A stretch of 64,000 nucleotides of DNA from Candidatus Methanoperedens sp. (GCA_041491305.1 JBGPUU010000001.1:15500-79499), one strand, 5' to 3'. Counted from the stretch's first letter, positions 22,822 to 51,776 are shown. Notes: generated by a model from the sequence alone, not told the origin. Numbers and translations: made by a program.

Positions 22822-22859
22822 TTTAATCTACACATATGATATTTAGGAAGAGGAAAATC

Positions 22860-23438: not shown

Positions 23439-23507
23439 ATCAACACTGCTCAGATGCATGATGAAAATCAAACCCTTCTTTGCATTGCTTTTTAGTCAAA
23501 TACTATC

Positions 23508-23528
23508 ATAATTAAAAATTTTAATTAT
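23508..23528. promoter_or_regulatory. Perfect 10-1-10 palindrome upstream of TATA box (TTATATA 23545-23551) of the HTH-NTase pair; candidate operator
   Basis: ATAATTAAAA-A-TTTTAATTAT. Confidence 0.4.
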
Positions 23529-23574
23529 CAAATTAGTAAACTACTTATATACTTGTTTACTATATTGATATAAA

Positions 23575-25310: not shown

Positions 25311-25326
25311 CATTATTAGAGTCTTT

Positions 25327-25701
25327 ATGAAAACTTTTAAAATAAAGCAGCTTGATGATAAAGACGAGGAAATTGCGGATGCTCTTATTTCTTTAGGCAT
25401 GAACAGGTCTATTGCAAGAACGCTGACATATCTTCAAAATGTTGATGAAGCTACCGCTGTTGAGCTTGAGAAGGGTGCTATGCTGCATCAACCCGAGGTC
25501 AGCAATGCTGTGAAAGAGTTAAAGGAACGCGGCTGGATAAATGAGAGGGAGGAAAAGAAGCCAGGCAAAGGAAGGCCGCATAAAATATACTCGCTTGAAG
25601 TCAGGTTTAACAATATTATCACTCAGTTAGAGAAACAGCAGAAAATAGTTGTTGATGAGGAACGGGCAAAGATTATGCGGTTGAAGGAATTGGGGAAATA
25701 A
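25327..25701 (+). CDS. Archaeal wHTH transcriptional regulator (COG4738/MarR-like)
   Basis: LGMNRSIARTLTYL, LHQPEVSNAV, GKGRPHKIYSL. Confidence 0.8.
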   Translation: MKTFKIKQLDDKDEEIADALISLGMNRSIARTLTYLQNVDEATAVELEKGAMLHQPEVSNAVKELKERGWINEREEKKPGKGRPHKIYSLEVRFNNIITQLEKQQKIVVDEERAKIMRLKELGK

Positions 25702-34952: not shown

Positions 34953-35370
34953 TCAAATTCCTCCCTTAAATGGATAAAATAACAAACCTGTTTTAGAGCT
35001 ATTGACCTGAATGTCGATATTCCCCATCAGACGGATGGTATTTCCCGAAGTCAATTCAATCGGTTCTTTATTTCTGAGTTCAATAGTATCGTTTTTAACA
35101 GACGTAACTTCCATGACCCCGAAGGTATCGCCTTCTTTAACACCAGTAACGTTCTGTGACCTGAGCCATGTGTATTTAAAATCTGCTGCATCCGTTTCAG
35201 GTAAGCTGTATATTTTTGACAGATATGTAACTAAAATCGGTATATTACTTCCTTCTACATTCTGAGGATAATTGTACAGTTCCGTATAATGGGTTGCCAG
35301 GACTTTATCATCAATTTTGGTATTATCCTTGTCCAGACTTATAAAAACTAAACCTTCATTTATGAATATG
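34953..35370 (-). pseudogene. C-terminal half of a Methanosarcina-type S-layer (DUF1608) domain, 5' truncated
   Basis: ISLDKDNTKIDDKVL...VKEGDTFGVMEVTSVKNDTIELRNKEPIELTSGNTIRLMGNIDIQV...LLFYPF; no credible start codon or signal peptide. Confidence 0.7.
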
Positions 35371-35392
35371 AAACTCCATGGTGAGCGCAAGA

Positions 35393-36292
35393 ATGACAAA
35401 ATCCAAAAAAAGCGATGTATATCTGATACTCTCTGACATCCATGCCGATATAAAAGCCTTAGATACAATCATTGAGATAATAAATGATCCAAAATTCAAG
35501 AAAAGATACGGCAGTGTCAATAAAATAATAAACCTTGGCGATACCACTGGAAGAGGATATCATCCTGCTGAGGTCATAGAGCGGCTGATAGAGTTAGGAA
35601 AAGAAATCAGCGTTGTTTCGATAATGGGCAACCACGACGAGTCTTTTCTTTACGATTGGCCTGTATCCGGGGATGATGAAGACTGCATCAGGGCACATGA
35701 GGAGTTTAAAAGCGCTGTAAATAGCGATCATCGCAATAAAGCCAGCCCGGATTTCTTAAGTAAACTGCCGCAGTATTATGTAGATAAAGAGGAGAGGATT
35801 TTAGCGGTTCATGGAGGTCCTCTTGACCCTGAAAAGATAGCTCCTCCCGACCTTGAAGACTACGATAAATGGCTGTATCAGCGGACATGGCAGAGGATTT
35901 CGGAATATGATTTCGAATATCTGGATGATTACGGCTACCACTACCTGTCTGAGAACGCATTCCTGCATGCAAGAGAATTTTTTGATGGTGGCTTTATAAT
36001 ATTCTGTGGGCATCAGCATACTGAGGCAGTTTACAGGAATAAGGGCATGAAGACTGAGCTTGTGTCGGAGGAGCGCATGAAGATAAGGAAGGAAGAGCTT
36101 GCCGGGCATGTGGTTCAGGTGAAGGAGTTTGAGAGAAAGCGAGATGCAAATTATCTCATCCGTGTAGGTATTGCGGGACCCGAGGGATATTACAAAAGGT
36201 ACCGGTGGAATAAAATAGATTTTGGATTGGTGTGGGGAGAGAAGGGGATGCAAAAAGTAGGGATGTTTGAGAGCGAGTTGGAGTATGAATAG
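35393..36292 (+). CDS. Calcineurin-like metallophosphoesterase (candidate protein phosphatase)
   Basis: SDIH, LGDTTGRG, GNHDE, VHGG, CGHQH. Confidence 0.88.
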   Translation: MTKSKKSDVYLILSDIHADIKALDTIIEIINDPKFKKRYGSVNKIINLGDTTGRGYHPAEVIERLIELGKEISVVSIMGNHDESFLYDWPVSGDDEDCIRAHEEFKSAVNSDHRNKASPDFLSKLPQYYVDKEERILAVHGGPLDPEKIAPPDLEDYDKWLYQRTWQRISEYDFEYLDDYGYHYLSENAFLHAREFFDGGFIIFCGHQHTEAVYRNKGMKTELVSEERMKIRKEELAGHVVQVKEFERKRDANYLIRVGIAGPEGYYKRYRWNKIDFGLVWGEKGMQKVGMFESELEYE

Positions 36293-36442
36293 GTACCTGC
36301 GATAGGGTACATCTCTAAACAATGGCTATGTTTTTATCCGCTTCAATGTAGTGGCGCAAACTTCTATTTGGCGATAATTTAAAGCATCCTTTTTAGTTAT
36401 TCACAATATGCCAGCGTTTTGGAAAGCTCTATATTTTTCCCG

Positions 36443-38431
36443 TTACGTAATTTGACTTAGAATCTTAAAGCATGCATTTTTAATCTGCTCTGTGCCTTTG
36501 GGATATCGCTTGCAAATCTCAAGTGCTTCTTTTAACACACTTCGTGCTTTGCCAAATTCTTGGATTCTTGCATAAAAAATCCCCGTGTTTGTAAGGCATT
36601 TCGCTTGGTCTATATCTGCCCCAGGTATTGCTTTATACATCCTCAGTGCTTCTTTGAGGTTATACTCAGCCTCAAAGAATTTGTTCATGCGCCTATAAAC
36701 ATTCCCTAAGTTCGCATGACATTGCGCCTGATGCATTTCAGCTCCAAGTATCGCTTTATACATCCTCAATGCTTCTTTGTAATTGCCCTCAGCCTCAAAG
36801 AACTTATCTGTACTTTCGTAGACAACCCCCAGGTTCATAACGCATCTCGCTTGTTCTATCTCAGTACCAGATATTGCTTTATATATCCTCAGTGCTTCTT
36901 TAAGCTTGTCGGCGGCTTCAGAGAACTTGCCTATACTCAAATAAACGACACCTAGGTTCCTAATGCTGTAAGCTTGGCGTATCTCGGTTCCAGATATCGC
37001 TTTATATATCCTAAGTGCTTCTTTGTAATTGCCCTCAGCCTCAAAAAACTTGCCTGTGTGAAAATAGATATTCCCGACCTCCCCAAGGCATCTTGCCTGG
37101 ATTATTTCAGTTCCGGGTATGGTTTTTAATATCCTCAGTGCTTCTTTGAGGTTGCCAGCGGCTTCAGAGAACTTGCCTAAATCCATATAGACAACCCCTA
37201 AGCTCTTGAGGCATCTTGCCTGGTGTTTCTCAGTTCCAGATATAGTTTTCAACATCCTAAGTGCTTCTTTGAGATATTCCTCAGCATCAAAGAACCTGCC
37301 TAAGTTCTCATAGACATTCCCCAGATTCATAAGACATCCCCACTGGAAAAACTCGGTTCCAGATATAACTGTTAACATCCCCAGTGCCTTTTTGTAAGGT
37401 ATCTCAGCACTAGCATAACGACCAATGTTCTGAAGGGCTCGACCACGATTAAACCACCATTCAGGCGAATCGTTAATCTCCACCTCTGGGAAGCAGTATT
37501 CCTTCTTAAACTCACTTTTATATGTCTTAAGTAATTCCTTCTTTAGTTCTGAAATGTCATTAAAACGGTCTTCTATTTTTGGTTGAAGGCAGCGAGCAAT
37601 TATGCCTTTTAAGGATGAAGGAATGTTATCTGATAAAACCTCTCTTTGCGGGTCAGAGCGATTATACATAACTCTCTTTATCTGTTGATTTTGGGTATCT
37701 CCTCCTTTAAAGACATCATGCATTATCAGACCTACAGCAAACTGATCAGCACGATGGTCAACCTTTGCTCCCGCCACCTGCTCAGGTGCCATATATCCAG
37801 GAGTGCCCTTTACCCTTGCACTGAAATCGGTTACCTTATATATCCCATCCTTGTAAACCATGATATTCTCAGGCTTCAAGTCCTTATGGGCAGATATGCC
37901 ATGCTTATAGGCATGAAGCAAGCCCTCACAGATTTGTAAGCCCGCGCTGAGGGTTTCTTCCAGAGACAGACTTCCCTTTTCTATAACCAGACATCTCAGG
38001 TCTCCCCTTTCCATGAACTCTGAGAAAACAAACGGCACATTCCTTCTTGTTTTAGGATGGATGATATTTTCCAACAGGTGGACTGAAACAATATTAGGAT
38101 GCTGACCCATCTCAAGCCAAGGGAGAGCTTCTTCCAGAAAATCTTTTGCTATTTCTTCTTGCTTGGAAGGATGCAGTTTGAGGTAATCTTCTTTCAAGAA
38201 TTGCTGCAGGGTTTTGGCAGCGTATATCCTTTCACCAAAGTGGGTCGATTTTACGAAAAATACTGCTCCAAATCCGCCTGCTCTGAGCGCCAGAACCTTG
38301 AAGTTATCTCCAAAAGCATCGCTGTATTGCCATGGTATTTGGATGCCTTCTTTCTTCAAACGCTCCTCTGCCTGTCGGCTTGCTTCATCCCAGGAGAGTC
38401 TGTGTGTTGATATGATGTAGGATATATCCAT
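36443..38431 (-). CDS. Ser/Thr protein kinase with C-terminal 41-aa TPR-like repeats
   Basis: GGFGAV, AAKT, HKDLKPEN, TDFS, GTPGYMAPEQ, D.FAVG. Confidence 0.9.
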   Translation of the reverse strand: MDISYIISTHRLSWDEASRQAEERLKKEGIQIPWQYSDAFGDNFKVLALRAGGFGAVFFVKSTHFGERIYAAKTLQQFLKEDYLKLHPSKQEEIAKDFLEEALPWLEMGQHPNIVSVHLLENIIHPKTRRNVPFVFSEFMERGDLRCLVIEKGSLSLEETLSAGLQICEGLLHAYKHGISAHKDLKPENIMVYKDGIYKVTDFSARVKGTPGYMAPEQVAGAKVDHRADQFAVGLIMHDVFKGGDTQNQQIKRVMYNRSDPQREVLSDNIPSSLKGIIARCLQPKIEDRFNDISELKKELLKTYKSEFKKEYCFPEVEINDSPEWWFNRGRALQNIGRYASAEIPYKKALGMLTVISGTEFFQWGCLMNLGNVYENLGRFFDAEEYLKEALRMLKTISGTEKHQARCLKSLGVVYMDLGKFSEAAGNLKEALRILKTIPGTEIIQARCLGEVGNIYFHTGKFFEAEGNYKEALRIYKAISGTEIRQAYSIRNLGVVYLSIGKFSEAADKLKEALRIYKAISGTEIEQARCVMNLGVVYESTDKFFEAEGNYKEALRMYKAILGAEMHQAQCHANLGNVYRRMNKFFEAEYNLKEALRMYKAIPGADIDQAKCLTNTGIFYARIQEFGKARSVLKEALEICKRYPKGTEQIKNACFKILSQIT
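36500..37360 (-). repeat. Seven tandem ~123-bp (41-aa) repeats
   Basis: Units begin GTEFFQ, GTEKHQ, GTEIIQ, GTEIRQ, GTEIEQ, GAEMHQ, GADIDQ and share LKEALR; spacing 37360 to 37237 is 123 bp. Confidence 0.9.
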
Positions 38432-38600
38432 ATCGAATATTCATCTCATTTTAATAATTGTCTAATTTACTAATTTTTCCTACCTCGCAAAACTCTAATA
38501 CTTATTTTCAATCTTCTTTTGTGTGTATTTCATTATTACCCCAACGGAAGCTTGCTGCTTCTTTCATTTACTTTGCCTTTTTATTTGGATTTTTGAAATC

Positions 38601-40311
38601 TTACTCTAATTTCTTCAACCACTCCGTTGCAATTTCTATACTTTCTTTATCATCTGAAAATCTGATTACGTTTTCAAAGCATTTTTTCGCTTCCATATCC
38701 TCATCTAAAACATATAGAACACATCCTTTTCCGATCCAAGCCCTTGCATTTTTAGGATTTGTCTCCAATACTCTAATAAAGCATTTCATTGCATCTTTAA
38801 TTCTATGCTCCTTTAAATCACGCGATCCTAAAAGAAAACATGCATAACCTCTTTCGCACCAAGCTTCAACGTTCCTCGAATCAATGCTTATTACTTTTTC
38901 AAAGCTTTCAATTGCCTCACCATATCTTTCTAATTCCATGAGTATTTTTCCCTTAATAATCAGACAATCGGGATTTCTTGGATACAATCTCAGAGCTTCA
39001 TTTGTGCTATCTAAGGCAAGTTGGTATTTTTTTAATCTGAGTAAGCAAAAACCTTTATTTGCCAGCAGTGACATTCTCTCGAAATAATCTAATTGATTGA
39101 TGAAAGATTTCTGTAAACCCCTATCAAGATATTCTATTGCATCTTCATATCGATTCATTTTTATTAAGCATAATGCTTTTGCATTTAACGCAATGTTGTC
39201 GCTCGGCTTAATTATCAAAGCCTTATCTATATAAAGTATAGCATCTTTAATGTTATTTAAACTACGCAGACATTGTCCCTTTTCGCAAAGTGCCTCAGTA
39301 TTTTTTGGATTTTGCAAGTATATTATCGTAACATTTCAAAGCATTTTCAAATTTCTCTAACTGTTGATAGGAAAATCCTTTATTCAACCAGTCTACTTCA
39401 TCTAATTCCTCCTTTTTTCCAATTATTATATAATCGTCTGTGAAAATATTACGATGCATCTCAATTAATTCATCTTTCAGTTCTTTAAAACTTTGATGTC
39501 TTTCCTCGGGATCTTTTTTTAAACATCGCATTATCAATTCGTCAAGTTCTTTAGGAATAGTTTGGTTAATTAATTTAGGATTCACTGGATTCGTCTGGAA
39601 GATTTCATCTACATTTGAAAATGGGCGCTTACCAGTGGATACTTCATATAAAGTTGCACCAAAAGCGTAAATATCCGAGCGAGTTGTTATTGGTTTGGGT
39701 GTAAAGGAATAATGATCTAAAAACTTTCTGGGGAATTGTTCAGGAGGCATATAGGGCCATGTACCTACTCCACGAGAAACTTGTTCTGGCAACATTTCCA
39801 ATTTTTTTTCTTGATATGCATCCTCCAAAATAGCCACTAAACCGAAGTCAGTAATTTTGTATATTCTCTTATTATTACGTTCACTAATCAATATATTTCC
39901 AGGTTTGATATCTCGATGAACGATTCCAAGTTTGCTATATGCATAATCCATACCGTCACAGAATTGAATAGCAAAGTCGAACAGTTCAAAGATGTTAAGT
40001 TTACCAATCCATTGTGCAAGATTTCCTCCTTTAATATATTCTAATAAGATGTGAGGTTTTCCCTCTATAATAATTGTGAAGATTGCAAAAACTATGTTTG
40101 TATGCTTTTCGAGATTTACCCAAGTATCTGCTTCTTTTATAAATTTTTTGATTATTTCCTCTTCCCAGAAAAATTCGTCCTTAAAAGTCTTGATAGCAAT
40201 ATGTTGGTTCCATCTATGGTCCAAAACAACATAAACTATTCCCATGCCTCCTTCAAGGATGTTTAGTACTTCATAACGATTTAATATTATATCTCCACAA
40301 TCTCGCCTCAT
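38601..40311 (-). pseudogene. Ser/Thr kinase-TPR protein split by a frameshift at about 39315
   Basis: GGMGIV, IAIKT, HRDIKPGN, DFG, GTWPYMPPEQ; the TPR ...ENALKCYDNIL continues as QNPKNTEALCEKG in the other frame (ORFs 39295-40311 and 38601-39317). Confidence 0.85.
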
Positions 40312-40396
40312 TTTATCACAGTCTCTAGCATTTCACAAAATTACAATTGTAATATTTACCAAAAGCACTTACTTTACAGACCATATTTTTCTTTTA

Positions 40397-40888
40397 TCAG
40401 TTTAATCTTAGTTCAGTTTTTGGATCCAACTGACTTGCTTTATCAAAGCATTGCATAGCTTCTCTCTTTTTGCCAAGAAGATACGAAATACTTCCTTTAT
40501 TGAACCAAGCTCCAACATTTTGCGGATCCGTTTTCACAGCCTTATCATAGCAATCTAATGCTTCTATATATTTGCCTAATGATAGTAAAGAATTCCCCTT
40601 GTTGACAAAAATAACAGCATACTTTGAACTGTTTCTTGGAAGAATATCCAAAACTTTGTTAAAACAATTTATGGCTTCTTCGTGTTTGCCTACTTGAGCC
40701 AAAGTATCTCCTTTATTGTTCCAAACATCAACATCTTTTGGAGTTATTTCCAGCGCTTTGTCATAATATTTCAAGGATTCTTCAAGCTTTCCTATCATTA
40801 ATAATGATTCCGCCTTACTAGACCACTTTTCATCAGGGATATTCTTTTCTTTCGTTTTCTGTAACTTATTAAATATACCCATTTCCAC
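40397..40888 (-). CDS. TPR repeat protein
   Basis: 34-aa TPRs (WNNKGDTLA...AINCFNKVL; WFNKG...). Confidence 0.85.
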   Translation of the reverse strand: MEMGIFNKLQKTKEKNIPDEKWSSKAESLLMIGKLEESLKYYDKALEITPKDVDVWNNKGDTLAQVGKHEEAINCFNKVLDILPRNSSKYAVIFVNKGNSLLSLGKYIEALDCYDKAVKTDPQNVGAWFNKGSISYLLGKKREAMQCFDKASQLDPKTELRLN

Positions 40889-40928
40889 TAGCTAATATAT
40901 TTTATATAGTGATTTCTGTAATATAAAT

Positions 40929-42047
40929 TTATTTTTTGATTGACCTTTTTATTAACTCTCTAGTTTCTTTTGCATGTTTAACCGTAGGATCGATTTCTAA
41001 TGCTTTGTCGAAACATTGTATAGCTTCATCACATTTTAATAAACAACCTAAAGAAAGTCCTTTACCTGTCCATGCAACAGCACATTCTGGATCTATTTGT
41101 AAAACCTTCTCGTACCATTCAATAGCCTCTTCATATCTCTTTAAACAAGCTAAAGTAGTGCCCTTATTGTACCATATGGTAGAATTATCGGGATCCAGCT
41201 TTAAAACCACCTCTTCACATTTTAATGCTTCATCGAACTTGCCCATTTTATGCAAAACCTCCCCTTTATTAATCCAAGCTTTACCAAGCTTAGGGTTTAT
41301 TTTTAGTGCTTCATCAAAGCATTTCAAAGCATCATTGATTTTACCTGCTTCTAAAAATGATTCTCCCTTAAAATTCCATGCTCCTGCCGATATGTTTTCT
41401 TTTTCTCTAATGGTTTCATTTTTAATTTCAACTTTTTGTTTACACATTTCTATTTTATCTTGTATCTCCTTTATTTTCCTCGGACGCTCATATTCAGGAA
41501 CTACTTCTATCGCTCTTTTTATATATTCAGCAAAGTTATCTGTTTTTCCTGAAAGAAGATAAACGAAGGCAATGTTAGCTAACACCATATAATTTTGTGG
41601 ATCCAAAGCCAAAGCTAATCGAAAACATTCGTCTGCCTCTCGTTCTCTACCCAAGCTTACTAATAGACTACCTTTTTCGCTTAAAATCATTCCTTTCACC
41701 GAGTCCTCAGGATGCGCTTTAAGGGCTTTATCGTAGAAGAATAAAGTATCATCTATCTTTCCCAAATCAACAAGAACATTCGCTTTACCGTGCCAAGGGG
41801 CACTATGTTCAGTATTTAATTTTAAAGCCTCTTCGAAACAACACAAAGACTCATCGAATCTCCCCAAACGTCTTAAAGCATTTCCTTTATTGTTCAACGC
41901 TATACAAGAGAGCTCAAATGCAAGAACTTTATCATAATATTTTATTGCTTCCTCAAATCTCTCCTCATCAAATAACGAAATTCCCATGTTAATCCATTCA
42001 TCTATCTGCTGTCTCTTTGATGTTGCAATGCCATTGAACAGACTCAT
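40929..42047 (-). CDS. TPR repeat protein
   Basis: About 9 TPRs; ATG 42047 (MSLFNG) just downstream of the previous stop. Confidence 0.85.
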   Translation of the reverse strand: MSLFNGIATSKRQQIDEWINMGISLFDEERFEEAIKYYDKVLAFELSCIALNNKGNALRRLGRFDESLCCFEEALKLNTEHSAPWHGKANVLVDLGKIDDTLFFYDKALKAHPEDSVKGMILSEKGSLLVSLGREREADECFRLALALDPQNYMVLANIAFVYLLSGKTDNFAEYIKRAIEVVPEYERPRKIKEIQDKIEMCKQKVEIKNETIREKENISAGAWNFKGESFLEAGKINDALKCFDEALKINPKLGKAWINKGEVLHKMGKFDEALKCEEVVLKLDPDNSTIWYNKGTTLACLKRYEEAIEWYEKVLQIDPECAVAWTGKGLSLGCLLKCDEAIQCFDKALEIDPTVKHAKETRELIKRSIKK

Positions 42048-42061
42048 TTTCTTTCCACTTG

Positions 42062-43279
42062 TCAAACCTTGTAGGTAACCATAACTGCATAAATCACAGC
42101 AATTAAAATTATCACTAGGCTCATCGCAAACCGCTTCCATTCTCTGTTCATATAAGCATGTGCTCCCAAGGGTACGAAAACAGCAAGACTTGATCCTATC
42201 ATAATCTTATACATTGAGGGGATGGCCGCCAATTTTTCTTCTCCAATTATGAAGTGCCATGCACCCAGAGAGTAGTAAAATACAAATATAATCTCCACAA
42301 CTGCCAGCGCAGCCTGCATTGATACTCCCCTGCTCTGGATCGCTATAGAACTCATGCCCCTTAGCAAATCAAGCCCTGTATGGACGCTGCTTATTGTAGA
42401 TTGACAGTAGTTTAAGTCGTAACTTATCTGATTGAGTGATATTTCAAATCTTTTTAAATGAAATTTATAAACCTGATCGTTCTCCCTCCGTAGAATCTCT
42501 AATCTATCCTTGTAATTGTCAATGTTAATCTGGAGCGTGTTTTGGAGCTTGTTAACCAGGGAGACCTTTTCCACAAAGCTCATGTATTTTTGGGTCACGT
42601 CGCTCAATTTCTCCCTCTGCCTTTGGGCATCCTCATTCCTAAGAGTATCGAGTAATGTTACCAGTTCTTCGTCAAGTTTCTTTGCGCCCCCCATCAGTTC
42701 CTCCCGAACTTTATCGTATTCCCTTATCTCGGTGCTTGCCTTATGAAAATGCGACTCGATTTTTACGAGTCCACGATCTATTGCAAAGAGAAAATTCTTC
42801 CGTGTTATATCCTCTAAAGTCCTGGGTGTATGCAGAATATACCCAATCTCTCTTTCTTTCATTGGTCGTGCAGCCTGCCATAAGTTCCCAAACTTGGTTA
42901 TCGTTGGGGGAACTGTCCCATCTTTTTCACCTTCCAGACCATCAACCAGCTCCCAGTATACAATGCTTGACCCCAGAAAATTGTCCACCTCGACAGGAAT
43001 TTCTAAATTCTGAATTATCTGATTTAAAGATTCTCGTTGATTAAGCCATTTCTGCGAAGAGAACTCTCCATCTTCTCTTATATAGAACCGCAATACAGTG
43101 GTATCATAATAGGTTAACCATTCCAGTTGATATCCATTGCCTCTAAAGACCTTGTGGTCTGCTTCATCACCTATTAAAGATAATCTGCTTCTCAATCTAT
43201 CTGGCGGCGCCTCATTGGTGTTATCACGTTTATAAAAACAGAGAGCAATTAGCGAGGGATTAGTAATTATTTCTTTCAT
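42062..43279 (-). CDS. Membrane protein with soluble N-domain, long helical stalk and 3 C-terminal TM segments (CorA-like architecture, no GMN motif)
   Basis: ATGA overlap with the FHA gene; coiled-coil KLQNTLQINIDNY...; hydrophobic tail segments. Confidence 0.6.
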   Translation of the reverse strand: MKEIITNPSLIALCFYKRDNTNEAPPDRLRSRLSLIGDEADHKVFRGNGYQLEWLTYYDTTVLRFYIREDGEFSSQKWLNQRESLNQIIQNLEIPVEVDNFLGSSIVYWELVDGLEGEKDGTVPPTITKFGNLWQAARPMKEREIGYILHTPRTLEDITRKNFLFAIDRGLVKIESHFHKASTEIREYDKVREELMGGAKKLDEELVTLLDTLRNEDAQRQREKLSDVTQKYMSFVEKVSLVNKLQNTLQINIDNYKDRLEILRRENDQVYKFHLKRFEISLNQISYDLNYCQSTISSVHTGLDLLRGMSSIAIQSRGVSMQAALAVVEIIFVFYYSLGAWHFIIGEEKLAAIPSMYKIMIGSSLAVFVPLGAHAYMNREWKRFAMSLVIILIAVIYAVMVTYKV

Positions 43280-43923
43280 TTATGTTTCTTAAACCTCTTC
43301 TCCAAAAGAATTAACTCATTTTTAATGCTGTGTATATCCTGATCATTTACTTCAGTGGGGCATATTCTAATAGGCTCTGGCGGTGGTGTTTTCTGTGCCT
43401 TACTGATTTCATTTCTCATTTCGTTCATAACATTGACAAGTTCTTCAACTTCTATAGCTTTTTTAGCTTTTTGCAATTTCTTAATAATATTGTTGAGCAG
43501 CTTTTCAAACTCTGCCTGCGAAAGTCTTTTGCCTGCCTCCTCAAATTGGTTGTGTATATCCTTGGCATCTTTTTGGAGCTTTTCTATATCATCTTTACAT
43601 TCGAACTTCAGCCATACAGGGCCCAATTTTAATATTGCACCAGAAGCTAAAGGGGTGATGGTTCCGGCAGGAATAGGCTTGGCAGCTTTGTCCTCTATAA
43701 TATAAGTCTTATTAGTGCTCCCTTCTCCTTCTGGACCCACATCCTCTATAAAATAGGTATCTTTTTCATTTGTGATTCGTGCATGATGTCTGGAAACTCT
43801 TTTATCAAAAGGTAAGTAAACATCATCTTTTTCATGTCTCCCCAGCATGATTGGAGTCTTCTCAAACTCAAATACTTTTCCATCGTCTGCGCCGCTCATT
43901 ATGGTGATAAATATATGGCTCAA
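43276..43923 (-). CDS. FHA domain protein with C-terminal helical domain
   Basis: MLGRHE, RVSRHHARI, GSTNKT (FHA GR/SRxH/STN motifs). Confidence 0.9.
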   Translation of the reverse strand: MSHIFITIMSGADDGKVFEFEKTPIMLGRHEKDDVYLPFDKRVSRHHARITNEKDTYFIEDVGPEGEGSTNKTYIIEDKAAKPIPAGTITPLASGAILKLGPVWLKFECKDDIEKLQKDAKDIHNQFEEAGKRLSQAEFEKLLNNIIKKLQKAKKAIEVEELVNVMNEMRNEISKAQKTPPPEPIRICPTEVNDQDIHSIKNELILLEKRFKKHK

Positions 43924-44507
43924 TCCCTTACCTCCTTTTTTAATGTTATTTCATCGCTGGTTGCATCAACATTAATCACATCCCTCTGTGCAAAATCGCC
44001 TTTTAATATCTTTTCACTCAGAGGCTGAGCGATCATTCTCTCGATTTCACGCTGCAGCAGCCTGGCCCCTTTGGCTGGATCATAACCTTTGCGACAGATA
44101 AAATCAATTGCATTTTGAGTGCCCTGCAGGCTTATTCCTTTTTCTTTTAATAGGCTGTTCAAGCTTCCCAACATAATCTGCGCTATCTTATGGATATCCT
44201 CCTGACCGAGTGGTTTGAATAAGATTAGCTCGTCTATGCGGTTGAGGAACTCAGGTCGAAAGACGCTTCTTACCTTTCGGAGCATTTCTTCCCGATGATT
44301 CTTTGTATAAACCCCAAAGGGTATCTCATGCCCTAGAAATGCCTGCTTGACATCAGGAGTAGGTGGCTCCAAATACCTAAGCACCATTTCAAGGCTGCAG
44401 GTGCATATGAATTTATGCTCTTTCTCAATGTACTGATGTTTTGCAGCAGCGGCTTCTCTGGCTGTTATCTGCCAGGTCAATGATGCGCCAACCGAAAGTT
44501 CATTCAT
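43920..44507 (-). pseudogene. Internally deleted Clp/Hsp100 ATPase (N-domain start fused to D2-small domain)
   Basis: AREAAAAKHQYIEKEH (Clp-N), FRPEFLNRIDE, GYDPAKGARLLQREI (D2-small); no Walker A/B motifs. Confidence 0.8.
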
Positions 44508-44613
44508 ATTCGTAACCTATTGGTAAAGGTATGCCCCGTTCCAAAATAGAAAGATTCATTTCCATACATGGATAAGTTCTTTGATTTTTGATTGAGGTTA
44601 CCATACAGCATGT

Positions 44614-46125
44614 TCACATCTTCTTAAGCATAAGGATAGTCTCTTTGAGTCTTTCTACATGGGATGCGTACTGCGGTGGCGCAAATTCAATAAATTTCTG
44701 GAAAGATAATATCGCTTCATCACCCCGACCCAAACTGAACAGCGCAACGCCTTTGTTATTCCATGCGTCAGCATATCGTGGGTTTATGTCAAGAGCCTTA
44801 TCATAGCAGGCTATTGCTTCATCACCCCTTCCCAAACTATGTAGTACAACGCCTTTGTTAAGCCATGCCAAGGCATATCGTGGGTTTATATCAAGAGCCT
44901 TATCATAACAGGAAATCGATTCAGTAGACCGGTGCAATTTATAAAATGTATTGCCTTTGTTGTACCATGCCTTGTCATCTCGTGGATTAAGATCAAGACC
45001 CTTATCGTACCAGGTTATAGCTTCAGCTTGCCGGCCCAAATCATCCAGAGCAGTGCCCTTGTTACACCATATCTTGAAATCTCGTGGGTTTATGTCAAGA
45101 GCCTTATCATAGCAGGTTATGGCTTCCTCAGATCTGTCCAGTTCAGCCAGAGCATTGCCTTTGTTGATTAAATCATCCACTTCCAATTCCCCACCAGATT
45201 CTTCAGGAATCGTTTCACCAGTCAAATCAAAATATATCTTAGAAATATCCTGTCGCATCTCGCTGAAGTTCTGGTATCTTTTTGCAGGATCCTTCTCAAG
45301 GCACTTGCCAATGAGAACAGCAAGTTCAGCAGGAATACCTTGCTTGATAGGAATTGGAGATTCCTTCAAATGCATCTCTTTCCATGAACTCTTCCGTTGG
45401 TAAGGATAGCTGCTTGTAACCATCTGGTAGAGAACTATGCCAAAGGCATAGATATCAGCCTTTGTATCGATTTCCTTGCATGTGAACTGTTCAGGAGCCA
45501 TGTACGGCAAAGTCCCGGCAGTACTGCTCTGGACATAGCTCACATCTCGTGGAACCGCTATCTGTTCAGCTCTTGCTTCTATTGCCTTCGCCAGACCAAA
45601 ATCTGTTATCTTTACAGTTTTATCTCTGGTAAGTAATATGTTACCAGGCTTGATATCCCGATGAACAAGTTTCATTTTATTATATGCATAATACATCCCA
45701 TTGCAGAACTGGATAGCGAAGTTCAGGGCTAAGGGAAGGTCTAACATCTTTGTGTAGAGCCAGTCATCCAGATTCCCGCCTGCTGCGTATTCCACGAAAA
45801 TATAAGGCTGGCCCTCGATGTTTTTTACATAGTACGGTCTGACAATGTTCTTATGCTTATCAAGCTTGATCCATTTTTCGGCTTCACTGGTAAAATCATC
45901 CCTTGCCCTCTGGCTCTGTAGGAACTTTGTCTGAAAGGTTTTGATTGCAAGCGGCCCTTTATCTTCATGATCATAGCATATATACACAACCCCGAAGCCG
46001 CCTCTTTTTATTTTATGTATCTCATACCTGTTCTCGATCCTATCTCCAATCTGCCACCTCTCGTGCTCTTCTATTCCAGCGACCTCTTTTTTCCTTCTGA
46101 GGCTATCAAGCAGTTCCACGTCCAT
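44614..46125 (-). CDS. Ser/Thr protein kinase with TPR repeats
   Basis: GGFGVV, LAIKT, HRDIKPGN, DFG, GTLPYMAPEQ; 102-bp DNA repeats encoding CYDKALDINPR. Confidence 0.92.
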   Translation of the reverse strand: MDVELLDSLRRKKEVAGIEEHERWQIGDRIENRYEIHKIKRGGFGVVYICYDHEDKGPLAIKTFQTKFLQSQRARDDFTSEAEKWIKLDKHKNIVRPYYVKNIEGQPYIFVEYAAGGNLDDWLYTKMLDLPLALNFAIQFCNGMYYAYNKMKLVHRDIKPGNILLTRDKTVKITDFGLAKAIEARAEQIAVPRDVSYVQSSTAGTLPYMAPEQFTCKEIDTKADIYAFGIVLYQMVTSSYPYQRKSSWKEMHLKESPIPIKQGIPAELAVLIGKCLEKDPAKRYQNFSEMRQDISKIYFDLTGETIPEESGGELEVDDLINKGNALAELDRSEEAITCYDKALDINPRDFKIWCNKGTALDDLGRQAEAITWYDKGLDLNPRDDKAWYNKGNTFYKLHRSTESISCYDKALDINPRYALAWLNKGVVLHSLGRGDEAIACYDKALDINPRYADAWNNKGVALFSLGRGDEAILSFQKFIEFAPPQYASHVERLKETILMLKKM

Positions 46126-46446
46126 CTCTCCTGCGCATATTCATAAGAATACCTTTTCAGGTTATAATAAGCTTTTCATTCGTCATTCGAAATACATTTA
46201 AAACCATTAATTGGTCATCTTTGTATGCAGAACCGCAAACTCAGAATCAGCCTGAAAATCAATCGAAATTGGATGTCTGAATGATGTCCCTTTTATTTGT
46301 ATTTGTATCCAAGAATGGAGAGAAATGGAGGGATTTACAAAAAAGTCTCAGGCAACCAGATATGCCTTTTTGTTGATGACAAGTCAAATTTATTCACGGA
46401 TGCTGCTTCCAATATTACTTGGTTTCATTTTAATCACAGATGGTTG

Positions 46447-47529
46447 TTAACATGGCATTGGCTGTTTCACTGTTATTATTCGTGTCCTCCCATTTTTACC
46501 CCGGTTCTCAATACATGTATCGACCAATTTGGCATTGATTAACTTATCCAGCGCTTTATGAAATGTAGTATATCCTTTTTTTGTTCGCTTATGAAATTCG
46601 ATAAATAGCTCACCGGCATGCGATGTACCCATTTCAGACGCTGCGTTGAGGAGCGCGGTTTCTGTATCGGTGAATACTTTCAGATATCTTTTCAATCTAT
46701 CTTCCGAGGCTTCGATGAGTGCGGTATCAACATCCGTGAAATCAACGGTCTTAGAAGCGCGCATTTCTGCGTTAATAACAGATCTTTTCAGAAGATCGAT
46801 ACCAAACCTGATATCTCCTTTAGGTACGGTGCAGCCGGTTATTTTCTCGATAATTCCTTTCTCAACAACATTCGGGTATAACCCGATTTTTGCCCGCCTA
46901 TCCAGGATGTCAAAGGTTTCGTCCCAGGTATATCCGGGAAATTTAACGATTTTTGGTGTGAATATCGAGGTTATATCATCCAGTGGTGGATATGAAATGC
47001 TGTGTACGGCGGCTAAACCGATATTAAGGGGATACTCTTCATAAAGTCTTAAAATATTATTCACTACATCATGGAAAATCCCCCTTGAAATCAAGAAATC
47101 CGCATCATCCAGTATCACAAACATTGTCTTGTTTTTGGCAGTGAGCGTCTCCGCTATCTTTTCGTATAATTTTTTCAATGCTATTCCGGAGGGGGGCAGC
47201 TCTATTCCTGTCATCTTCCTGTAGATTTCCGCAAGTACGGAGTAATGAGTCTGCGTATACCTGCAGTTGATATAAGCCAAAATGAGGCTTGAAGGGGATA
47301 TCTGTTCTGCTAGCTCGATAATTTTTTTGACCGAAGTGGTCTTTCCTGTTCCAGGCGGACCAATGCATATTATGTTCTGCGGATGCTTGCCATCTATCCC
47401 GGGCGCTATAGCATAACCTATTCTTTTTATCTGCAGGTCTCGATAGAGAAACTCATCCGGGACGTATCCAAGCTCAAATATTTCCTTATCCTTAAACAGC
47501 GTCTGCTCCCATGCAAGTAGATTTTTCAT
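46447..47529 (-). CDS. cdc6: Orc1/Cdc6 family replication initiator
   Basis: GPPGTGKT (Walker A), YINC, ILDDAD (Walker B-like), GDIRFGI, C-terminal wHTH. Confidence 0.9.
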   Translation of the reverse strand: MKNLLAWEQTLFKDKEIFELGYVPDEFLYRDLQIKRIGYAIAPGIDGKHPQNIICIGPPGTGKTTSVKKIIELAEQISPSSLILAYINCRYTQTHYSVLAEIYRKMTGIELPPSGIALKKLYEKIAETLTAKNKTMFVILDDADFLISRGIFHDVVNNILRLYEEYPLNIGLAAVHSISYPPLDDITSIFTPKIVKFPGYTWDETFDILDRRAKIGLYPNVVEKGIIEKITGCTVPKGDIRFGIDLLKRSVINAEMRASKTVDFTDVDTALIEASEDRLKRYLKVFTDTETALLNAASEMGTSHAGELFIEFHKRTKKGYTTFHKALDKLINAKLVDTCIENRGKNGRTRIITVKQPMPC

Positions 47530-47631: not shown

Positions 47632-48816
47632 TCAAGTGCCTGTTTTCCTTGATTCCATGCGGCTCTTTATCAGCTCCAAAATAGCAGGTTCCTGCCTTAT
47701 CAAATCCATAAGTTCTATTGTGAGAGATACCTTTTCCTTATCAATATTTATTGCTGTAACAAGGTCAAGCGCTGCGCCGCATTTATAGCAGAACTTCCCT
47801 GTAGTTCCATTTACTGTGCTACACCTGGGGCATTGAATAGGAGCCAGTTCTTTATCCTGTGGTGTTGAGGTTTTTGAAATACCATATGCCCTGAGAAGCG
47901 TTTCGTCTAAGTTCTTGCCTGAACGATGAACATATATCCGGGTCATTCTGGATCCCTGTATCCAGCCAAAGTATTCATCCATCATCGAATCTGTGAGAAT
48001 TCCAGACTTCTCGGTAGCACTGGTGTGCCTGAAAAGATGGTTATATACCCGTTTTTGGATGCCAGCTCTCTTGGCAATTCTTTTTATCCGCATGGTTATT
48101 GCAGGATACAGGAGCTGCTGACAGGTGGTGCCTTCGAGCCCGTTAGTTCTTCCATTTTCTCCCAGTCTTATCCAAAAAGGAGCATTGGGATCTAATTTCT
48201 TGGGATGGACATTAAGCCATGCACTGAGATAAGGAGATGAGAATATTGCCCTGACGCGTCTCATTCCAGTCTTCCCGTTGACTATGAAAATTGCGCCATA
48301 ATCATCAAAATGAACGTCCTTAATCTGCAAGGTTGCAAGTTCTCCTATCCTGCAGCCTGTTTCGTATAGAGCCGCTATCATAGCTTTGTCCATAGGATGC
48401 ATGGCGCAATCTATCATTTTCAAGACTTCTTCTCTTGTGAAAATGTCCGGGATTTTATTCTTGACATTTTTCATGATAATCAGATTTCCAAGGTCGTTTT
48501 TCCCTGTTTGTTTAAGAAATGTTTTGAAAATCTGCTTGTATGTGTATTTTGTCCAGTCTGCTATATCCTTGCGCTGCACCCATTCTAAAAAAGAGTAAAT
48601 ATCTTCTTTTTCCAAAGAATCGAGATCCTTGTTCAATTTCCCGCTTATTATTCTAAGAACAGAAATACACCTTTCTATTCTGGCCTTACTAAATTCTTTT
48701 ATAAACAACTGCCTTTCATAATCGAATATTATCTTCTTATTGTTTCCACTGATGCTGGCATTTCTAATATTTTCTTCTGCGCGTTTCAGTATTCCCTCGT
48801 AACCATAGATATCCAT
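47632..48816 (-). CDS. Tyrosine recombinase/integrase with C-terminal Zn ribbon
   Basis: ETGCRIGEL, GKTGMR, HLFRH, FGW...SRM...YVH (catalytic R-K-H-R-W-Y); CPRC...CYKC. Confidence 0.92.
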   Translation of the reverse strand: MDIYGYEGILKRAEENIRNASISGNNKKIIFDYERQLFIKEFSKARIERCISVLRIISGKLNKDLDSLEKEDIYSFLEWVQRKDIADWTKYTYKQIFKTFLKQTGKNDLGNLIIMKNVKNKIPDIFTREEVLKMIDCAMHPMDKAMIAALYETGCRIGELATLQIKDVHFDDYGAIFIVNGKTGMRRVRAIFSSPYLSAWLNVHPKKLDPNAPFWIRLGENGRTNGLEGTTCQQLLYPAITMRIKRIAKRAGIQKRVYNHLFRHTSATEKSGILTDSMMDEYFGWIQGSRMTRIYVHRSGKNLDETLLRAYGISKTSTPQDKELAPIQCPRCSTVNGTTGKFCYKCGAALDLVTAINIDKEKVSLTIELMDLIRQEPAILELIKSRMESRKTGT

Positions 48817-48926
48817 AGTTAACCACTCCAATCTGGTTTGAGAATATAATCGTGAGGTAAGTACTGGTGAAAGTGCACTATTGAAAGAATATTTGGCCTT
48901 TGTAGGGCGTTTAACAAAAATTTGAG

Positions 48927-49012
48927 CGCCGAGGTAGGGATTTGAACCCTAGCTTACCAGAAGGTAAAACAGGTCTCGAGCCTGCCGCGTTAGTCCGCTC
49001 TGCCACCTCGGC
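48927..49012 (-). tRNA. tRNA-Ser (anticodon CGA), no encoded CCA
   Basis: GCCGAGG/CCTCGGC acceptor stem, GCAGG-CTCGAGA-CCTGT anticodon arm, long variable arm TTACC/GGTAA, TAGGG-TTCAAAT-CCCTA T arm, discriminator G. Confidence 0.95.
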
Positions 49013-49034: not shown

Positions 49035-49059
49035 TGTAGCCTATTAACCTGACGCTACA
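49035..49059. repeat. Left copy of 25-bp inverted repeat (itself TGTAGC-N13-GCTACA palindrome)
   Basis: TGTAGCCTATTAACCTGACGCTACA; 21/25 identical to the reverse complement of 51752-51776. Confidence 0.75.
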
Positions 49060-49198
49060 TTCGTTTATTACCTTTTATCTTACCCAAATACACCTGTGTG
49101 ATTATAATCTTGTCTGAATATAGTCAAAATAATTCTCTAATTGTTTTTATGTGTCATCTCTATATACGTGAGAATACTTATGTATTAAGGGGAAGAGC

Positions 49199-51742
49199 AT
49201 GGCTTACATCTTTGATTATAAAAACCGGGATAACCATGGATGCGGCACAGGGCAGTGCATAGGAATAGTTCTTGCTTTGTTAATGGTCTTGGTGCTGGCA
49301 GGGGAGGGCAGTGCCGCAACTACTACTTATAAATGGTTTTTTAATACTGATAACGAGTCATGGGTATTTTCCAATTCGACATGCGGCACATCCTGTACGG
49401 TAAGTTCAGGCGTCAACTTATCAGATGGTGCGCCCGGCTCGTTAACCGCCAATATTTCTGTTAACACGTCCAACTCAAGATCTGCAGCTACATCCTGGCG
49501 TTCACCCAATTTTACCTGGAATAACGGGACTCCTAATTCCGCGGTTTTAAACTTTAGCTTCAAAGTTGCAATTTTTAATGAGACATCCGGTATCAATAAC
49601 TATAGTATATTCCTCAAAGATCCGGATGACAATGTACAACAAATATATCCAATTACTGCATTTAATGAAACCGGCAGCTGGGGTAACTTTTCCAATAATT
49701 CGATCAATGCATCGTATTTTAGTAAATCCGGCAATTATAGTTTGTTATTGAATGCAAGTTTAAATGCCTCAAGGGATGATGATAATAATACTCCGGTTAT
49801 AGTCGAGGTTAGATGGGACAACCCCAACATTACCTTAACAACCCTGCCTCCCGACGTCATTTCAAACACGAACCGCCAGTATGTCAAAACCGGTGAAAAT
49901 GTATCCTTGAATGCAACTATTACTGCGACTGCAGGCGTGCGGAATGCAACAGTCAATGTCTCTGCGATAAACTCCACAATAGTCCAGGCTGTTCTAAATA
50001 ATGTAGGTGGATTCTGGATCAATAATTCCATAATAGCAGACAGAACCGATACCAACGGGTTAATGAATCTCACAATAACTGCCTATAATAACGCCAGCGA
50101 TGTTAACAACAGCATCAACATGACGGTAGGAATAGATGATACACCGCCATCCGTGTTCTCCAATACCGATGACGTTGATGTGCCGAATTGTAGTGCCCCG
50201 TCATTGAATGCAACTATAACTGATTCAGGTGCCGGAGTGAAAAATGCAACAGTCAACATCTCAGCTATAAATTCGACAATAAATGAGGCTATTCTTAATA
50301 ATGTCAGCGGGTTCTGGATTAATAATTCCATAACAGCAGATAAAGTGACTGTAGGGTTCGTGAACCTCACAATAACAGCTTACGATAACGCTGGCAATGT
50401 TAATAATGGCACAAACCTGACAGTGCAAGTGACACCGGTCAGGGCAGTCAATCTTTCGAATATTTCATTCCTTTCCCATTCAACAGCCGCGGGAACCAAC
50501 GCCACCTATGTTCTACACCTTACAAATAACGGAAGTGATCCTGATTCATATACGCTTATATTGGACAATCCGGACAGTGCCTCAGTATACGGCTTAAACG
50601 TTTCATCTCCTGTCTTCCTGAATGCAAATGAAACGAGTATATTCGCGCTCAATGTAACCAATACAACGCCAGGCACATTTCATGTCAATGTCACAGCAAT
50701 CTCGGTGAATGACTCAAACAGGTTTTCATACATCAATACCACAACCACCGTGACTGCACCGGAAGGGCCTAACTTTACGAGCTTCGCTCCACCATCGCCA
50801 GTCAATGACGTAGCGGGAGCAAGTAGGACATTCAATATCACCACAAACCAGACAGTGAACGTGACCTGGTACATCAACGGCACTTTTGCCCAGAGTAATG
50901 TGAGCGTAACCGATGCAAACTACACCAATATCTCTCCTGTCGCTGGCTTCTGGAACGTAACAGCAATTGCAAATAATACCAACGGCACAGTTTATCAGAC
51001 ATGGAATTGGAGCGTTACTTCTCCAACACACTTTTCAACAGGCGGAGGAGGCGGCGGCTGCACAGGAGGCGGAGTAATTACGTCCGAGCCTTATACCAAC
51101 ATAGAAAAAGCAGAGAGGTACGACAACGACCTTATCACCGACACGCCAGTCACCTATACATACAAAGTGCCTGAACTTGGTGTATACGAAATAGCAGTCA
51201 CAGACGAACTGAACGAAGATTGTAAGGCCATAAGAGTAGAAGTGCTTAAAGGCACATCAAAACTTGTAACAGTTTCACCGCCAGGAACAGTAAACAAGAA
51301 TGTGAATATCTGGGCAGGAACTGATAGTATAGAAGAAGCATTAATCAGATTCAAAGTCGAGAATTCCTGGCTCAGCAGCAACAGTTTTGCAACCAGTGAC
51401 GTGAAAATGGTCAAATGGGACGGAAGCAAATGGGTGCAGCTTGAAACCATGGAGAAAAATAAGGACAGCGCATTCACTTACTTTGAGGCAAAGACAGATA
51501 CCTTCTCGGTGTTCGCAATAACCGGATTAAATGGCGCGGAAGTGCCCACACCTACGCCGGCAGGCGTGGTAACAGAAATTCCGGCTAAGCAAACAGGTAC
51601 GTCAGCTCCGGCGCCGGCAAAGAAGGGAATCCCCTGGTTTGAAATAATTATGGTTTTTGTTACAATAGCGTTGCTGATAGCATCGCTGAACAAGGATCGA
51701 AAGAGGCAGCGAAAAGATATTAATGACGCGGTGAAGAGGTAG
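49199..51742 (+). CDS. Cell-surface glycoprotein with PGF-pre-PGF domain and C-terminal PGF-like anchor
   Basis: Signal/TM segment; many N-x-S/T sites; two ~97-aa internal repeats; GGGGG linker, SEPYTNIEK..., WVQLET...FSVFAITG; KKGIPWFE + TM + basic tail. Confidence 0.85.
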   Translation: MAYIFDYKNRDNHGCGTGQCIGIVLALLMVLVLAGEGSAATTTYKWFFNTDNESWVFSNSTCGTSCTVSSGVNLSDGAPGSLTANISVNTSNSRSAATSWRSPNFTWNNGTPNSAVLNFSFKVAIFNETSGINNYSIFLKDPDDNVQQIYPITAFNETGSWGNFSNNSINASYFSKSGNYSLLLNASLNASRDDDNNTPVIVEVRWDNPNITLTTLPPDVISNTNRQYVKTGENVSLNATITATAGVRNATVNVSAINSTIVQAVLNNVGGFWINNSIIADRTDTNGLMNLTITAYNNASDVNNSINMTVGIDDTPPSVFSNTDDVDVPNCSAPSLNATITDSGAGVKNATVNISAINSTINEAILNNVSGFWINNSITADKVTVGFVNLTITAYDNAGNVNNGTNLTVQVTPVRAVNLSNISFLSHSTAAGTNATYVLHLTNNGSDPDSYTLILDNPDSASVYGLNVSSPVFLNANETSIFALNVTNTTPGTFHVNVTAISVNDSNRFSYINTTTTVTAPEGPNFTSFAPPSPVNDVAGASRTFNITTNQTVNVTWYINGTFAQSNVSVTDANYTNISPVAGFWNVTAIANNTNGTVYQTWNWSVTSPTHFSTGGGGGGCTGGGVITSEPYTNIEKAERYDNDLITDTPVTYTYKVPELGVYEIAVTDELNEDCKAIRVEVLKGTSKLVTVSPPGTVNKNVNIWAGTDSIEEALIRFKVENSWLSSNSFATSDVKMVKWDGSKWVQLETMEKNKDSAFTYFEAKTDTFSVFAITGLNGAEVPTPTPAGVVTEIPAKQTGTSAPAPAKKGIPWFEIIMVFVTIALLIASLNKDRKRQRKDINDAVKR

Positions 51743-51751
51743 GTAAACCTT

Positions 51752-51776
51752 TGTAGCTTCAAGTCAATAGGCTACC
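51752..51776. repeat. Right copy of 25-bp inverted repeat
   Basis: TGTAGCTTCAAGTCAATAGGCTACC. Confidence 0.75.

Follow-up and report, generated by a model that had tools for sequence, protein, structure and literature searches.

Here, we analysed a stretch of 64,000 nucleotides on contig 1 of a Candidatus Methanoperedens sp. genome (GCA_041491305.1; JBGPUU010000001.1:15500-79499; called the window in the following), the genome being 2.5 Mb in size and 94% complete. Positions ~35378-46218 of the window are a single, horizontally mobile and self-contained Ser/Thr-phosphorylation cassette, which is both conserved and accessory. The cassette is best classed with the kinase/phosphatase/FHA threat-signalling modules, is built around a novel core of an adaptor and a membrane protein and is undescribed so far. 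Its ten genes code for three Hanks kinases with TPR arrays, two proteins made of TPRs only, one FHA protein, the remnant of a Clp ATPase, a membrane protein and a convergently oriented metallophosphoesterase. A preliminary description made from the sequence had listed this run of genes, including a kinase fused to 41-residue TPR units and a metallophosphoesterase converging on the operon, directly behind an integrase and Cdc6; all of them were recovered in place by a listing of open reading frames (ORFs) and a Pfam scan.

The unity of the cassette is apparent from a second copy, called L001, in another Methanoperedens metagenome-assembled genome (G027), which is also the source of the closest homologue of the membrane protein. 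The gene order in L001 is kinase-TPR (683 residues), Clp (944), FHA (215), membrane protein (406), TPR (377), TPR (172), kinase-TPR (570), kinase-TPR (749) and a convergent phosphoesterase. Every cassette gene of the window has an orthologue in L001, in the same order and with 58-87% amino-acid identity, showing that the genes co-occur elsewhere as one unit, as would be expected of the system that the preliminary description had proposed. Its prediction that an intact Clp would be found in a homologous locus was borne out by the neighbourhood comparison, the 944-residue protein of L001 containing Clp_N, AAA, AAA_lid_9, AAA_2 and D2-small domains. At the DNA level (blastn), homology between the two cassettes extends from position 46218, 93 nt upstream of kinase 1, to position 35602 inside the phosphoesterase gene, and the segment 46126-46218 (minus strand) constitutes a conserved upstream leader. 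The flanks are unrelated: integrase, Cdc6 and a tRNA gene in the window versus a Y1 transposase and an rve insertion sequence (IS) in L001. Profile searches of the whole host genome gave three full Pkinase matches, which are the cassette kinases, and two others that are weak and partial (39.8 and 27.3 bits); the sole FHA match was the FHA protein of the cassette. The only FHA protein and the only full kinases of the genome therefore lie in the cassette, leaving the FHA reader without other Hanks kinases to work with. These data bear on the explanation that unrelated signalling paralogues were juxtaposed by chance on a variable island. TPR proteins are common and the window is mosaic in its left part, but a ten-gene synteny in two genomes with different flanks, the overlaps and fusions that link the parts (see below) and the fact that the genome has its three full kinases and its single FHA protein at this locus render it highly improbable, and we regard it as refuted by synteny and fusions.

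The membrane gene is carried by 2 of the 53 species genomes of the family. The locus is thus accessory and not part of a fixed core genome, in agreement with the preliminary description, which had placed it on an integrated element. Upstream of the cassette, all on the minus strand, lie genes for Orc1/Cdc6 (46447-47529; Pfam Cdc6_lid, 1.8e-13, and AAA_22) and for a tyrosine integrase that carries a zinc ribbon at its C-terminus (47632-48831; Phage_integrase, 1.2e-14), followed by tRNA-Ser(CGA) (48926-49012; ARAGORN), whose 3' end faces the integrase at a distance of 95 nt. Since L001 has no homologue of either protein in its flanks, Orc1/Cdc6 and the integrase are considered to lie outside the cassette proper. 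The tRNA-Ser(CGA) gene is found in 46 of 49 genomes of the genus, and the 20 kb on its 3' side in three close relatives have no similarity to the window; genome G009 carries a homologous integrase at the same tRNA-Ser. The tRNA-Ser/integrase site is a variable integration hotspot. Neither a repeat search nor a pattern search with up to three mismatches detected a second attachment site, i.e. a direct repeat of the 3' end of tRNA-Ser, in the 64-kb window, and a clean empty site was not reconstructable by synteny with relatives.

Several side observations concern the surroundings of this site. The window has a mosaic left half (9062-13949 and 21400-25700), adjacent pieces of which map to different or scattered contigs in close relatives; G027 holds the segment 9062-13364 at 92-94% identity on a contig other than that of its cassette. 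More than 20 genomes of the genus have, ~40-150 nt after tRNA-Ser(CGA), sequence matching the window from 51774 onwards (71-93% identity). In the window, a 2.7-kb segment (49035-51776) containing an 847-residue surface-protein gene and bracketed by 25-bp inverted repeats lies in between, and this segment is therefore an insertion specific to the host genome. At the other end, the phosphoesterase side of the cassette directly adjoins an ORF of 171 residues (34953-35468, minus strand) whose match to the profile of a Methanosarcina-type S-layer domain is confined to the C-terminal profile positions 136-257 of 259; this gene may have been truncated by the insertion.

Base composition and substitution rates were compared as well. 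The GC content is 31.5-35% at 39-42 kb versus 43.6-46.5% at 51-54 kb, so that the low GC content noted in the preliminary description held, whereas the contrast was smaller than the 25-35% versus about 50% given there. The orthologous genes of L001 are equally low in GC, indicating that the low GC content belongs to the cassette itself rather than to the insertion at this site. The ratio of nonsynonymous to synonymous divergence (dN/dS) between the window and L001 was 0.20-0.55 across all ten genes. Synonymous divergence (dS) was 0.22 for the FHA and membrane genes, 0.4 for the C-terminal part of Clp and for the kinase domain of kinase 2, and 0.9-1.0 for kinases 1 and 3; this unevenness suggests recombination between cassette variants, although alignments of the repeats may inflate the high values. 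The TPR parts, which are the presumed sensors, diverge fastest, with 58-64% identity between the two cassettes versus 77-87% for the core. A scan for sigma-70 promoters and terminators returned counts equal to the shuffled expectation, this type of scan not being relevant for an archaeon.

All three kinases are encoded on the minus strand. Kinase 1 (44614-46125; 503 residues) combines a canonical RD (Arg-Asp) Hanks kinase domain (Pkinase, 1.5e-47) with a TPR_1 array (3e-48) built of 102-bp repeats, and is 68% identical to the 683-residue kinase of L001 (K683), which holds more repeats. Kinase 2 is split. Its kinase half (39295-40311; 338 residues; Pkinase, 1.2e-39; canonical RD motifs) is 80% identical to residues 1-335 of the 570-residue kinase-TPR of L001 (K570), and its TPR half (38601-39317; 238 residues) aligns to residues 334-569 of the same protein; a deletion of 2 nt relative to L001 at the kinase/TPR junction separates the two halves, which overlap. 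As read from the alignment, kinases 1 and 2 retain every catalytic motif (AIKT, HRDIKPGN, DFG and APE/PPE), the last one being PPE in kinase 2. Kinase 3 (36443-38431; 662 residues) is a non-RD Hanks kinase (Pkinase, 2.8e-23) followed by a TPR array (TPR_12, 4.8e-47) made of seven 123-bp tandem repeats that encode TPR_12/TPR_10 units of 41 residues. Its motifs are AAKT, HKDLKPEN, DFS and APE, and its activation segment is very short; it is thus an atypical kinase that keeps the K, D and N residues, and this non-RD variant is conserved in both Methanoperedens cassettes. Kinase 3 is 58% identical to its 749-residue orthologue in L001 and differs from it in repeat number. Two stand-alone TPR proteins are encoded between kinase 2 and the membrane gene, again on the minus strand. 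The smaller one (40397-40888; 163 residues; TPR_1, 1.6e-36) is 64% identical to the 172-residue TPR protein of L001. The larger one is annotated as an ORF of 403 residues (40929-42140; TPR_1, 1.2e-64), of which residues 32-403 align with residues 1-373 of the 377-residue TPR protein of L001 at 58% identity; its true start is probably near position 42047.

The FHA protein (43276-43923, minus strand; 215 residues) consists of an FHA head (Pfam FHA, 3.9e-12) and a helical tail of about 100 residues and is referred to here as the FHA-tail adaptor. The head keeps the residues that would bind phosphothreonine (G28-R29, S44, H47 and N71), and the domain also scores on the Pfam profile Yop-YscD_cpl. 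The preliminary description had called Clp, FHA and membrane protein an ATGA-coupled trio. This is accurate for the FHA and membrane genes, which overlap by ATGA, but the Clp and FHA genes overlap in a different manner, the TTG start of the latter lying on the TGA stop of the former with a GGAGG motif 7 nt upstream. An overlap between the membrane gene and the gene of its partner recurs in L001 and in three more distant homologous loci (L025, L068 and L069).

In the metagenome loci L002 and L005, the gene overlapping the membrane gene encodes a protein of 288-294 residues with a Clp_N head (E 2.5e-11), and the ~110 residues at its C-terminus share 36% identity with the C-terminal half of the FHA protein of the window. 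In L032, a full Clp carries the tail of the FHA protein at its C-terminus (40% identity, E 4e-14). The tail of the FHA protein is thus 36-40% identical to the C-termini of Clp_N-tail and Clp-tail proteins, and a hidden Markov model (HMM) built from five tails also matched the FHA-tail partner of L069 (E 8e-13) and the partial partner of L068 (E 4e-5). In a remote relative (P0031), the FHA domain is fused directly to the region of the membrane family. Because the tail is fused to each of these heads in different loci, we consider the tail adaptor and the membrane protein to be the constant unit and the FHA, Clp_N and Clp heads to be exchangeable; the tail fusions tie FHA, Clp and membrane protein together. 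The presence of the tail is claimed for the window, L001, L002, L005, L032, L068 and L069 only. For the partners in L025 and L033, tail homology had seemed plausible in a MAFFT alignment, and it was rejected since the tail HMM gave no match.

The membrane protein (42062-43279, minus strand; 405 residues) has neither a Pfam nor a PADLOC match and is 87% identical to its 406-residue orthologue in L001. In an AlphaFold model (pLDDT, the model's per-residue confidence score, 66), an alpha/beta domain at the N-terminus is followed by a loop of low confidence (residues 108-169), by three long helices and, at the C-terminus, by three hydrophobic ones. The loop is conserved, and T126, T151 and T159 within it are invariant among close homologues. 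The preliminary description had called this protein CorA-like. We rejected this identity: no Pfam CorA match (PF01544) was obtained at E<=10, and a Foldseek search against the PDB returned nothing at E<=1e-3, Mrs2 appearing only at E 0.06 with a TM-score of 0.25-0.30. The C-terminal helices number three and not two, and the motif found there is YYSLGxWH and not GMN, so that the likeness is one of architecture only. We presume that the membrane protein is the output or effector of the cassette. In two relatives, P0064 and P0150 (L030, 608-2782; 724 residues), the N-terminal domain and the long helices are kept and a RelA/SpoT domain stands in place of the transmembrane (TM) helices. More remote relatives of 340-400 residues, likewise devoid of Pfam matches, share only the C-terminal half, i.e. 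the helices and the TM region. A phylum-level search detected these in 42 of 400 other sampled genomes, all belonging to two families (f6 and f36; loci L008-L024), and they look like an uncharacterised core membrane protein family.

The tenth gene, on the plus strand and convergent with the kinase operon, encodes a calcineurin-like metallophosphoesterase (35378-36292; 304 residues; Pfam Metallophos, 1.4e-14) with the motifs DIH, GDTTGRG, GNHDE and GHQH. It is 76% identical to its L001 orthologue, in which the rve IS removes the N-terminus (the first ~75 codons), and its nearest solved relatives are two uncharacterised Pyrococcus proteins (2gju and 1nnw). We consider it the candidate reset phosphatase of the cassette.

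Beyond L001, homologous loci differ in their complement of genes and retain the association with signalling parts to varying degrees. One to four kinase-TPR genes each are present in L002, L004, L005 and L032. In L025, where the membrane protein is 34% identical, the genes follow each other in the order of an FHA-kinase, a PP2C phosphatase, a kinase-WD40 protein, a 327-residue protein without Pfam match, an FHA gene overlapping the membrane gene, another PP2C and a kinase-TPR-WD40 protein. L032 (3041-19142), with a membrane protein of 64% identity, additionally encodes a TPR-CHAT protease and a kinase-DUF4384 protein; its contig is binned as Candidatus Scalindua rubra, and its assignment to an anammox bacterium reflects either cross-domain transfer or a mis-binned archaeal contig. 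In L033 (Methanobacterium oryzae DSM 11106) there is no kinase, and the partner/membrane pair directly follows a 903-residue homologue of Dsr1 (4162-6873) and sits beside an AAA protein. This ORF matches the PADLOC model of Dsr1 with E 4.7e-250, covering model positions 302-1225 only; the SIR2 part at the N-terminus may be absent, or it may lie upstream of the start chosen for the ORF. The structure model of the 268-residue partner in L033 was unusable (pLDDT 40). An AAA_15/AAA_21 ATPase adjoins the FHA-fused relative mentioned above. Pattern scans of genomes and metagenomes yielded three and four further loci, respectively, the four metagenome loci being remote and without kinases; statistics on co-occurrence are accordingly thin. 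Loss of components and damage by IS elements are recurrent: a truncated membrane gene and kinase 3 are all that is left in L004, the phosphoesterase of L001 is cut, and the Clp of L032 is split by a frameshift.

The copy in the window is itself damaged. As the preliminary description had recognised, the Clp gene (43920-44507, minus strand; 195 residues; Pfam match to ClpB_D2-small only) is a remnant, and it can be described more precisely as an in-frame internal deletion of a Clp/Hsp100 ATPase of ~944 residues with both ends retained. BLASTP aligned its residues 1-43 with residues 3-45 of the L001 Clp and its residues 57-195 with residues 806-944, i.e. 43 residues of Clp_N are joined to the last 139 residues. 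In the DNA, the junction (44341-44379) consists of 39 nt where L001 has 2279 nt, a net loss of ~2.2 kb. Both the Clp deletion and the frameshift in kinase 2 recur, with zero differences, in contigs from the separate assemblies of three sediment metagenome runs, one of which may be the source sample of the genome. One other Clp is encoded elsewhere in the host genome (873 residues, 47-50% identical). As the Clp lacks its ATPase rings and kinase 2 is split, the cassette in this genome is probably inactive, or a reduced form at best. It could accordingly be a decaying relic without present function, left over from a once-working module after the loss of Clp and kinase 2, and we take this to be a serious possibility, albeit one that falls short of an even chance. 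The loss of ~760 codons from Clp, which takes away both AAA+ rings, and the separation of kinase 2 from its TPR array are two lesions that also speak against a module operating in its full form here and that are the sole form seen in the contigs of the three runs; the TPR array of kinase 1 is shorter in repeats than that of its orthologue (503 versus 683 residues for the proteins), and other loci are degraded, too. Against decay, the deletion in Clp keeps the reading frame and leaves the coupling to FHA in place, the other eight genes are intact with dN/dS below 1, and the split kinase 2 could still be produced as two proteins. In addition, the Clp_N-tail variants of L002 and L005, which have diverged and contain no AAA+ rings, are intact ORFs, and the ATPase may therefore be dispensable.

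Taken as a whole, the cassette may be a phosphorylation-gated signalling module whose output is costly to the cell as in conflict systems of the abortive-infection type, a reading that in our judgement stands an even chance of being correct. Under this scheme, the TPR arrays would keep the kinases inactive until a protein ligand or stress signal is encountered, and the released kinases would phosphorylate a threonine on a component of the cassette. The FHA head would dock onto this phosphothreonine and, through the tail, switch the membrane protein to its output state, probably permeabilisation of the membrane or another costly, abortive-infection-like condition. The Clp ATPase would remodel or reset the complex, and since Clp is fused directly to the tail in L032, it can be expected to act on the same complex. 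Finally, the phosphoesterase (PP2C in L025) would erase the mark. If this mechanism is right, it may not be running in the genome studied here.

A role in defence or conflict is plausible from the context, namely from Dsr1, the TPR-CHAT protease, the AAA_15/AAA_21 ATPase, the swap to RelA/SpoT and the mobile flanks. The competing view is that of a physiological signalling module that merely happens to reside on mobile DNA, in which kinase-TPR, FHA and phosphatase would tune the membrane protein, be it a channel, a transporter regulator or an envelope-stress factor, to environmental or cell-surface cues. Sets of Hanks kinases, FHA proteins and phosphatases usually regulate physiology, examples being actinobacterial fhaA-fhaB-pstP-pknA-pknB and the Arn network of Sulfolobus. 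A number of observations favour this alternative or weaken the case for a conflict system. The remote relatives of the membrane protein are near-universal core genes in one other family of the phylum, where they lie in metabolic or housekeeping neighbourhoods without kinases or FHA. Two homologous loci are likewise free of kinases, one situated between LplA and DUF503 (L026) and one with a HAMP protein and an ABC transporter as neighbours (L003). PADLOC recognised no system in the cassette, giving only generic matches to kinase, TPR and Clp domains. With 12 close homologues in a search of 5.8 billion proteins and 161 representative clusters in a search of 1.84 billion, the membrane family is too rare for statistics on enrichment, the model of the membrane protein is only moderately confident and without a significant fold match, and the five-tail HMM found no match on the partners in L025 and L033. 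The invariant threonines of the membrane loop had been considered as conserved phospho-acceptors; this was rejected, as they are not invariant in distant FHA-linked members (position 151 is Ser there). On the other hand, presence in 2 of 53 genomes with differing mobile flanks is unusual for a physiological regulator. Neighbours such as Dsr1, TPR-CHAT and the AAA_15/AAA_21 ATPase, the replacement of the TM output by RelA/SpoT in some relatives, the frequent truncation of components and the fastest divergence being found in the TPR parts also count against it. We regard a physiological role as rather improbable.

The conflict reading can be generalised to an undescribed class of mobile, phosphorylation-gated abortive-infection or conflict systems in archaea and bacteria, a proposal we put forward tentatively and rate as somewhat unlikely. 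Such systems would possess a two-gene core of helical-tail adaptor and 3-TM effector in which both the heads (FHA, Clp_N, a whole Clp or the head next to Dsr1 whose nature is unknown) and the outputs (TM helices or a RelA/SpoT nucleotide pyrophosphokinase) are interchangeable, with arrays of repeat-domain Hanks kinases driving the response and phosphatases resetting it. In bacteria, the characterisation of immune or conflict systems that rely on Ser/Thr phosphorylation has only just begun, and to our knowledge none has been described in archaea. The cassette constitutes a compact and self-contained test case for such systems in archaea and provides a function-level handle on a membrane family without Pfam entry whose remote relatives are core genes; the naturally occurring versions devoid of Clp, FHA or phosphatase show which parts are dispensable. 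Methanoperedens (ANME-2d, a group of anaerobic methanotrophic archaea) is important in methane cycling and known for its large extrachromosomal elements, and knowledge of its conflict systems helps to understand this biology.

Comparison with known systems places the cassette near several of them without identifying it with any. In line with the preliminary description, which had not recognised the combination as a described archaeal system, the PADLOC analysis returned no system match, and literature searches did not find the combination of kinase, FHA, Clp and membrane protein for Methanoperedens or archaea. The kinase domains match the models of PD-T4-6 (best E 2.7e-59), mad6 and Stk2 (5e-19), models that capture any Hanks core; PD-T4-6 and Stk2 are single-gene defences with stand-alone kinases, whereas the cassette kinases are TPR fusions within a ten-gene set. 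The L001 Clp matches the models of DolB and PDC-M37B (E 3e-37 to 2e-45) over its D2 ring only. The Dodola system was rejected, since no cassette protein matches DolA (DUF6414) and the DolB matches reflect a generic AAA_2 domain. With CorA/Mrs2 and the CorA-type effectors of type III CRISPR systems, the membrane protein shares only the layout of N-terminal alpha/beta domain, long helices and C-terminal TM region; CorA/Mrs2 has two TM helices and GMN, in contrast to three TM helices and no GMN in the cassette protein.

The preliminary description had drawn an analogy to the control of the T6SS (type VI secretion system) by PpkA, PppA, Fha1 and ClpV, a threonine-phosphorylation pathway known from Pseudomonas aeruginosa. 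The analogy is apt in that both sets contain the same four kinds of component (Hanks kinase, phosphatase, FHA and Clp) and follow the same logic of writing, reading, erasing and remodelling, and the score of the FHA domain on Yop-YscD_cpl would fit as well. It does not extend to the machinery. VipB/TssC (PF05943) had no match in the 2.5-Mb genome while the E. coli control was positive, and neither the cassette nor the homologous loci contain sheath, tube or baseplate genes. PppA is a PP2C phosphatase, whereas the cassette has a Metallophos enzyme and PP2C occurs only in the distant L025; the T6SS pathway uses one membrane kinase, the cassette three cytoplasmic TPR kinases in an archaeal host; and the cassette FHA is coupled through its helical tail to a novel, small 3-TM protein. 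That the cassette regulates a secretion or contractile apparatus in the manner of PpkA-PppA-Fha1 and ClpV was thus rejected, and what remains of this idea after its near-complete refutation is improbable in the extreme.

Within the archaea, the Arn network of Sulfolobus acidocaldarius regulates transcription of the archaellum and comprises the FHA protein ArnA, the vWA protein ArnB, the Hanks kinases ArnC and ArnD and the phosphatase PP2A. Compared by shared domains only, it resembles the cassette in being an archaeal set of Hanks kinases, FHA protein and metallophosphatase. It differs in consisting of chromosomal core genes, in its vWA partner and in having neither Clp nor a membrane effector.

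Parallels in terms of defence are found in the Esr pathway and in ternary conflict systems. In the threat-sensing Esr pathway of Actinomycetales, a kinase/phosphatase pair sets the threonine phosphorylation of an output protein in which FHA is combined with variable partner domains, an experimental precedent from defence that is available as a preprint (10.64898/2026.09.08.750141). The passages of Kaur et al. (2020; PMC7159879) that deal with FHA, kinase and ClpB describe no such gene set as that of the cassette. The Esr and vWA-MoxR ternary conflict systems are like the cassette in their variable repeat-domain sensors, their kinase/phosphatase pair, their FHA protein with an exchangeable remainder and their diversified outputs (10.64898/2026.09.08.750141; PMC7159879). 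They differ from it in their vWA and MoxR components, neither of which is present among the cassette proteins according to Pfam and PADLOC. Relative to Esr, the cassette has its TPR sensors fused to the kinases, employs an uncharacterised membrane family as output and carries a Clp/Hsp100 in the place of the nucleoside triphosphatase.

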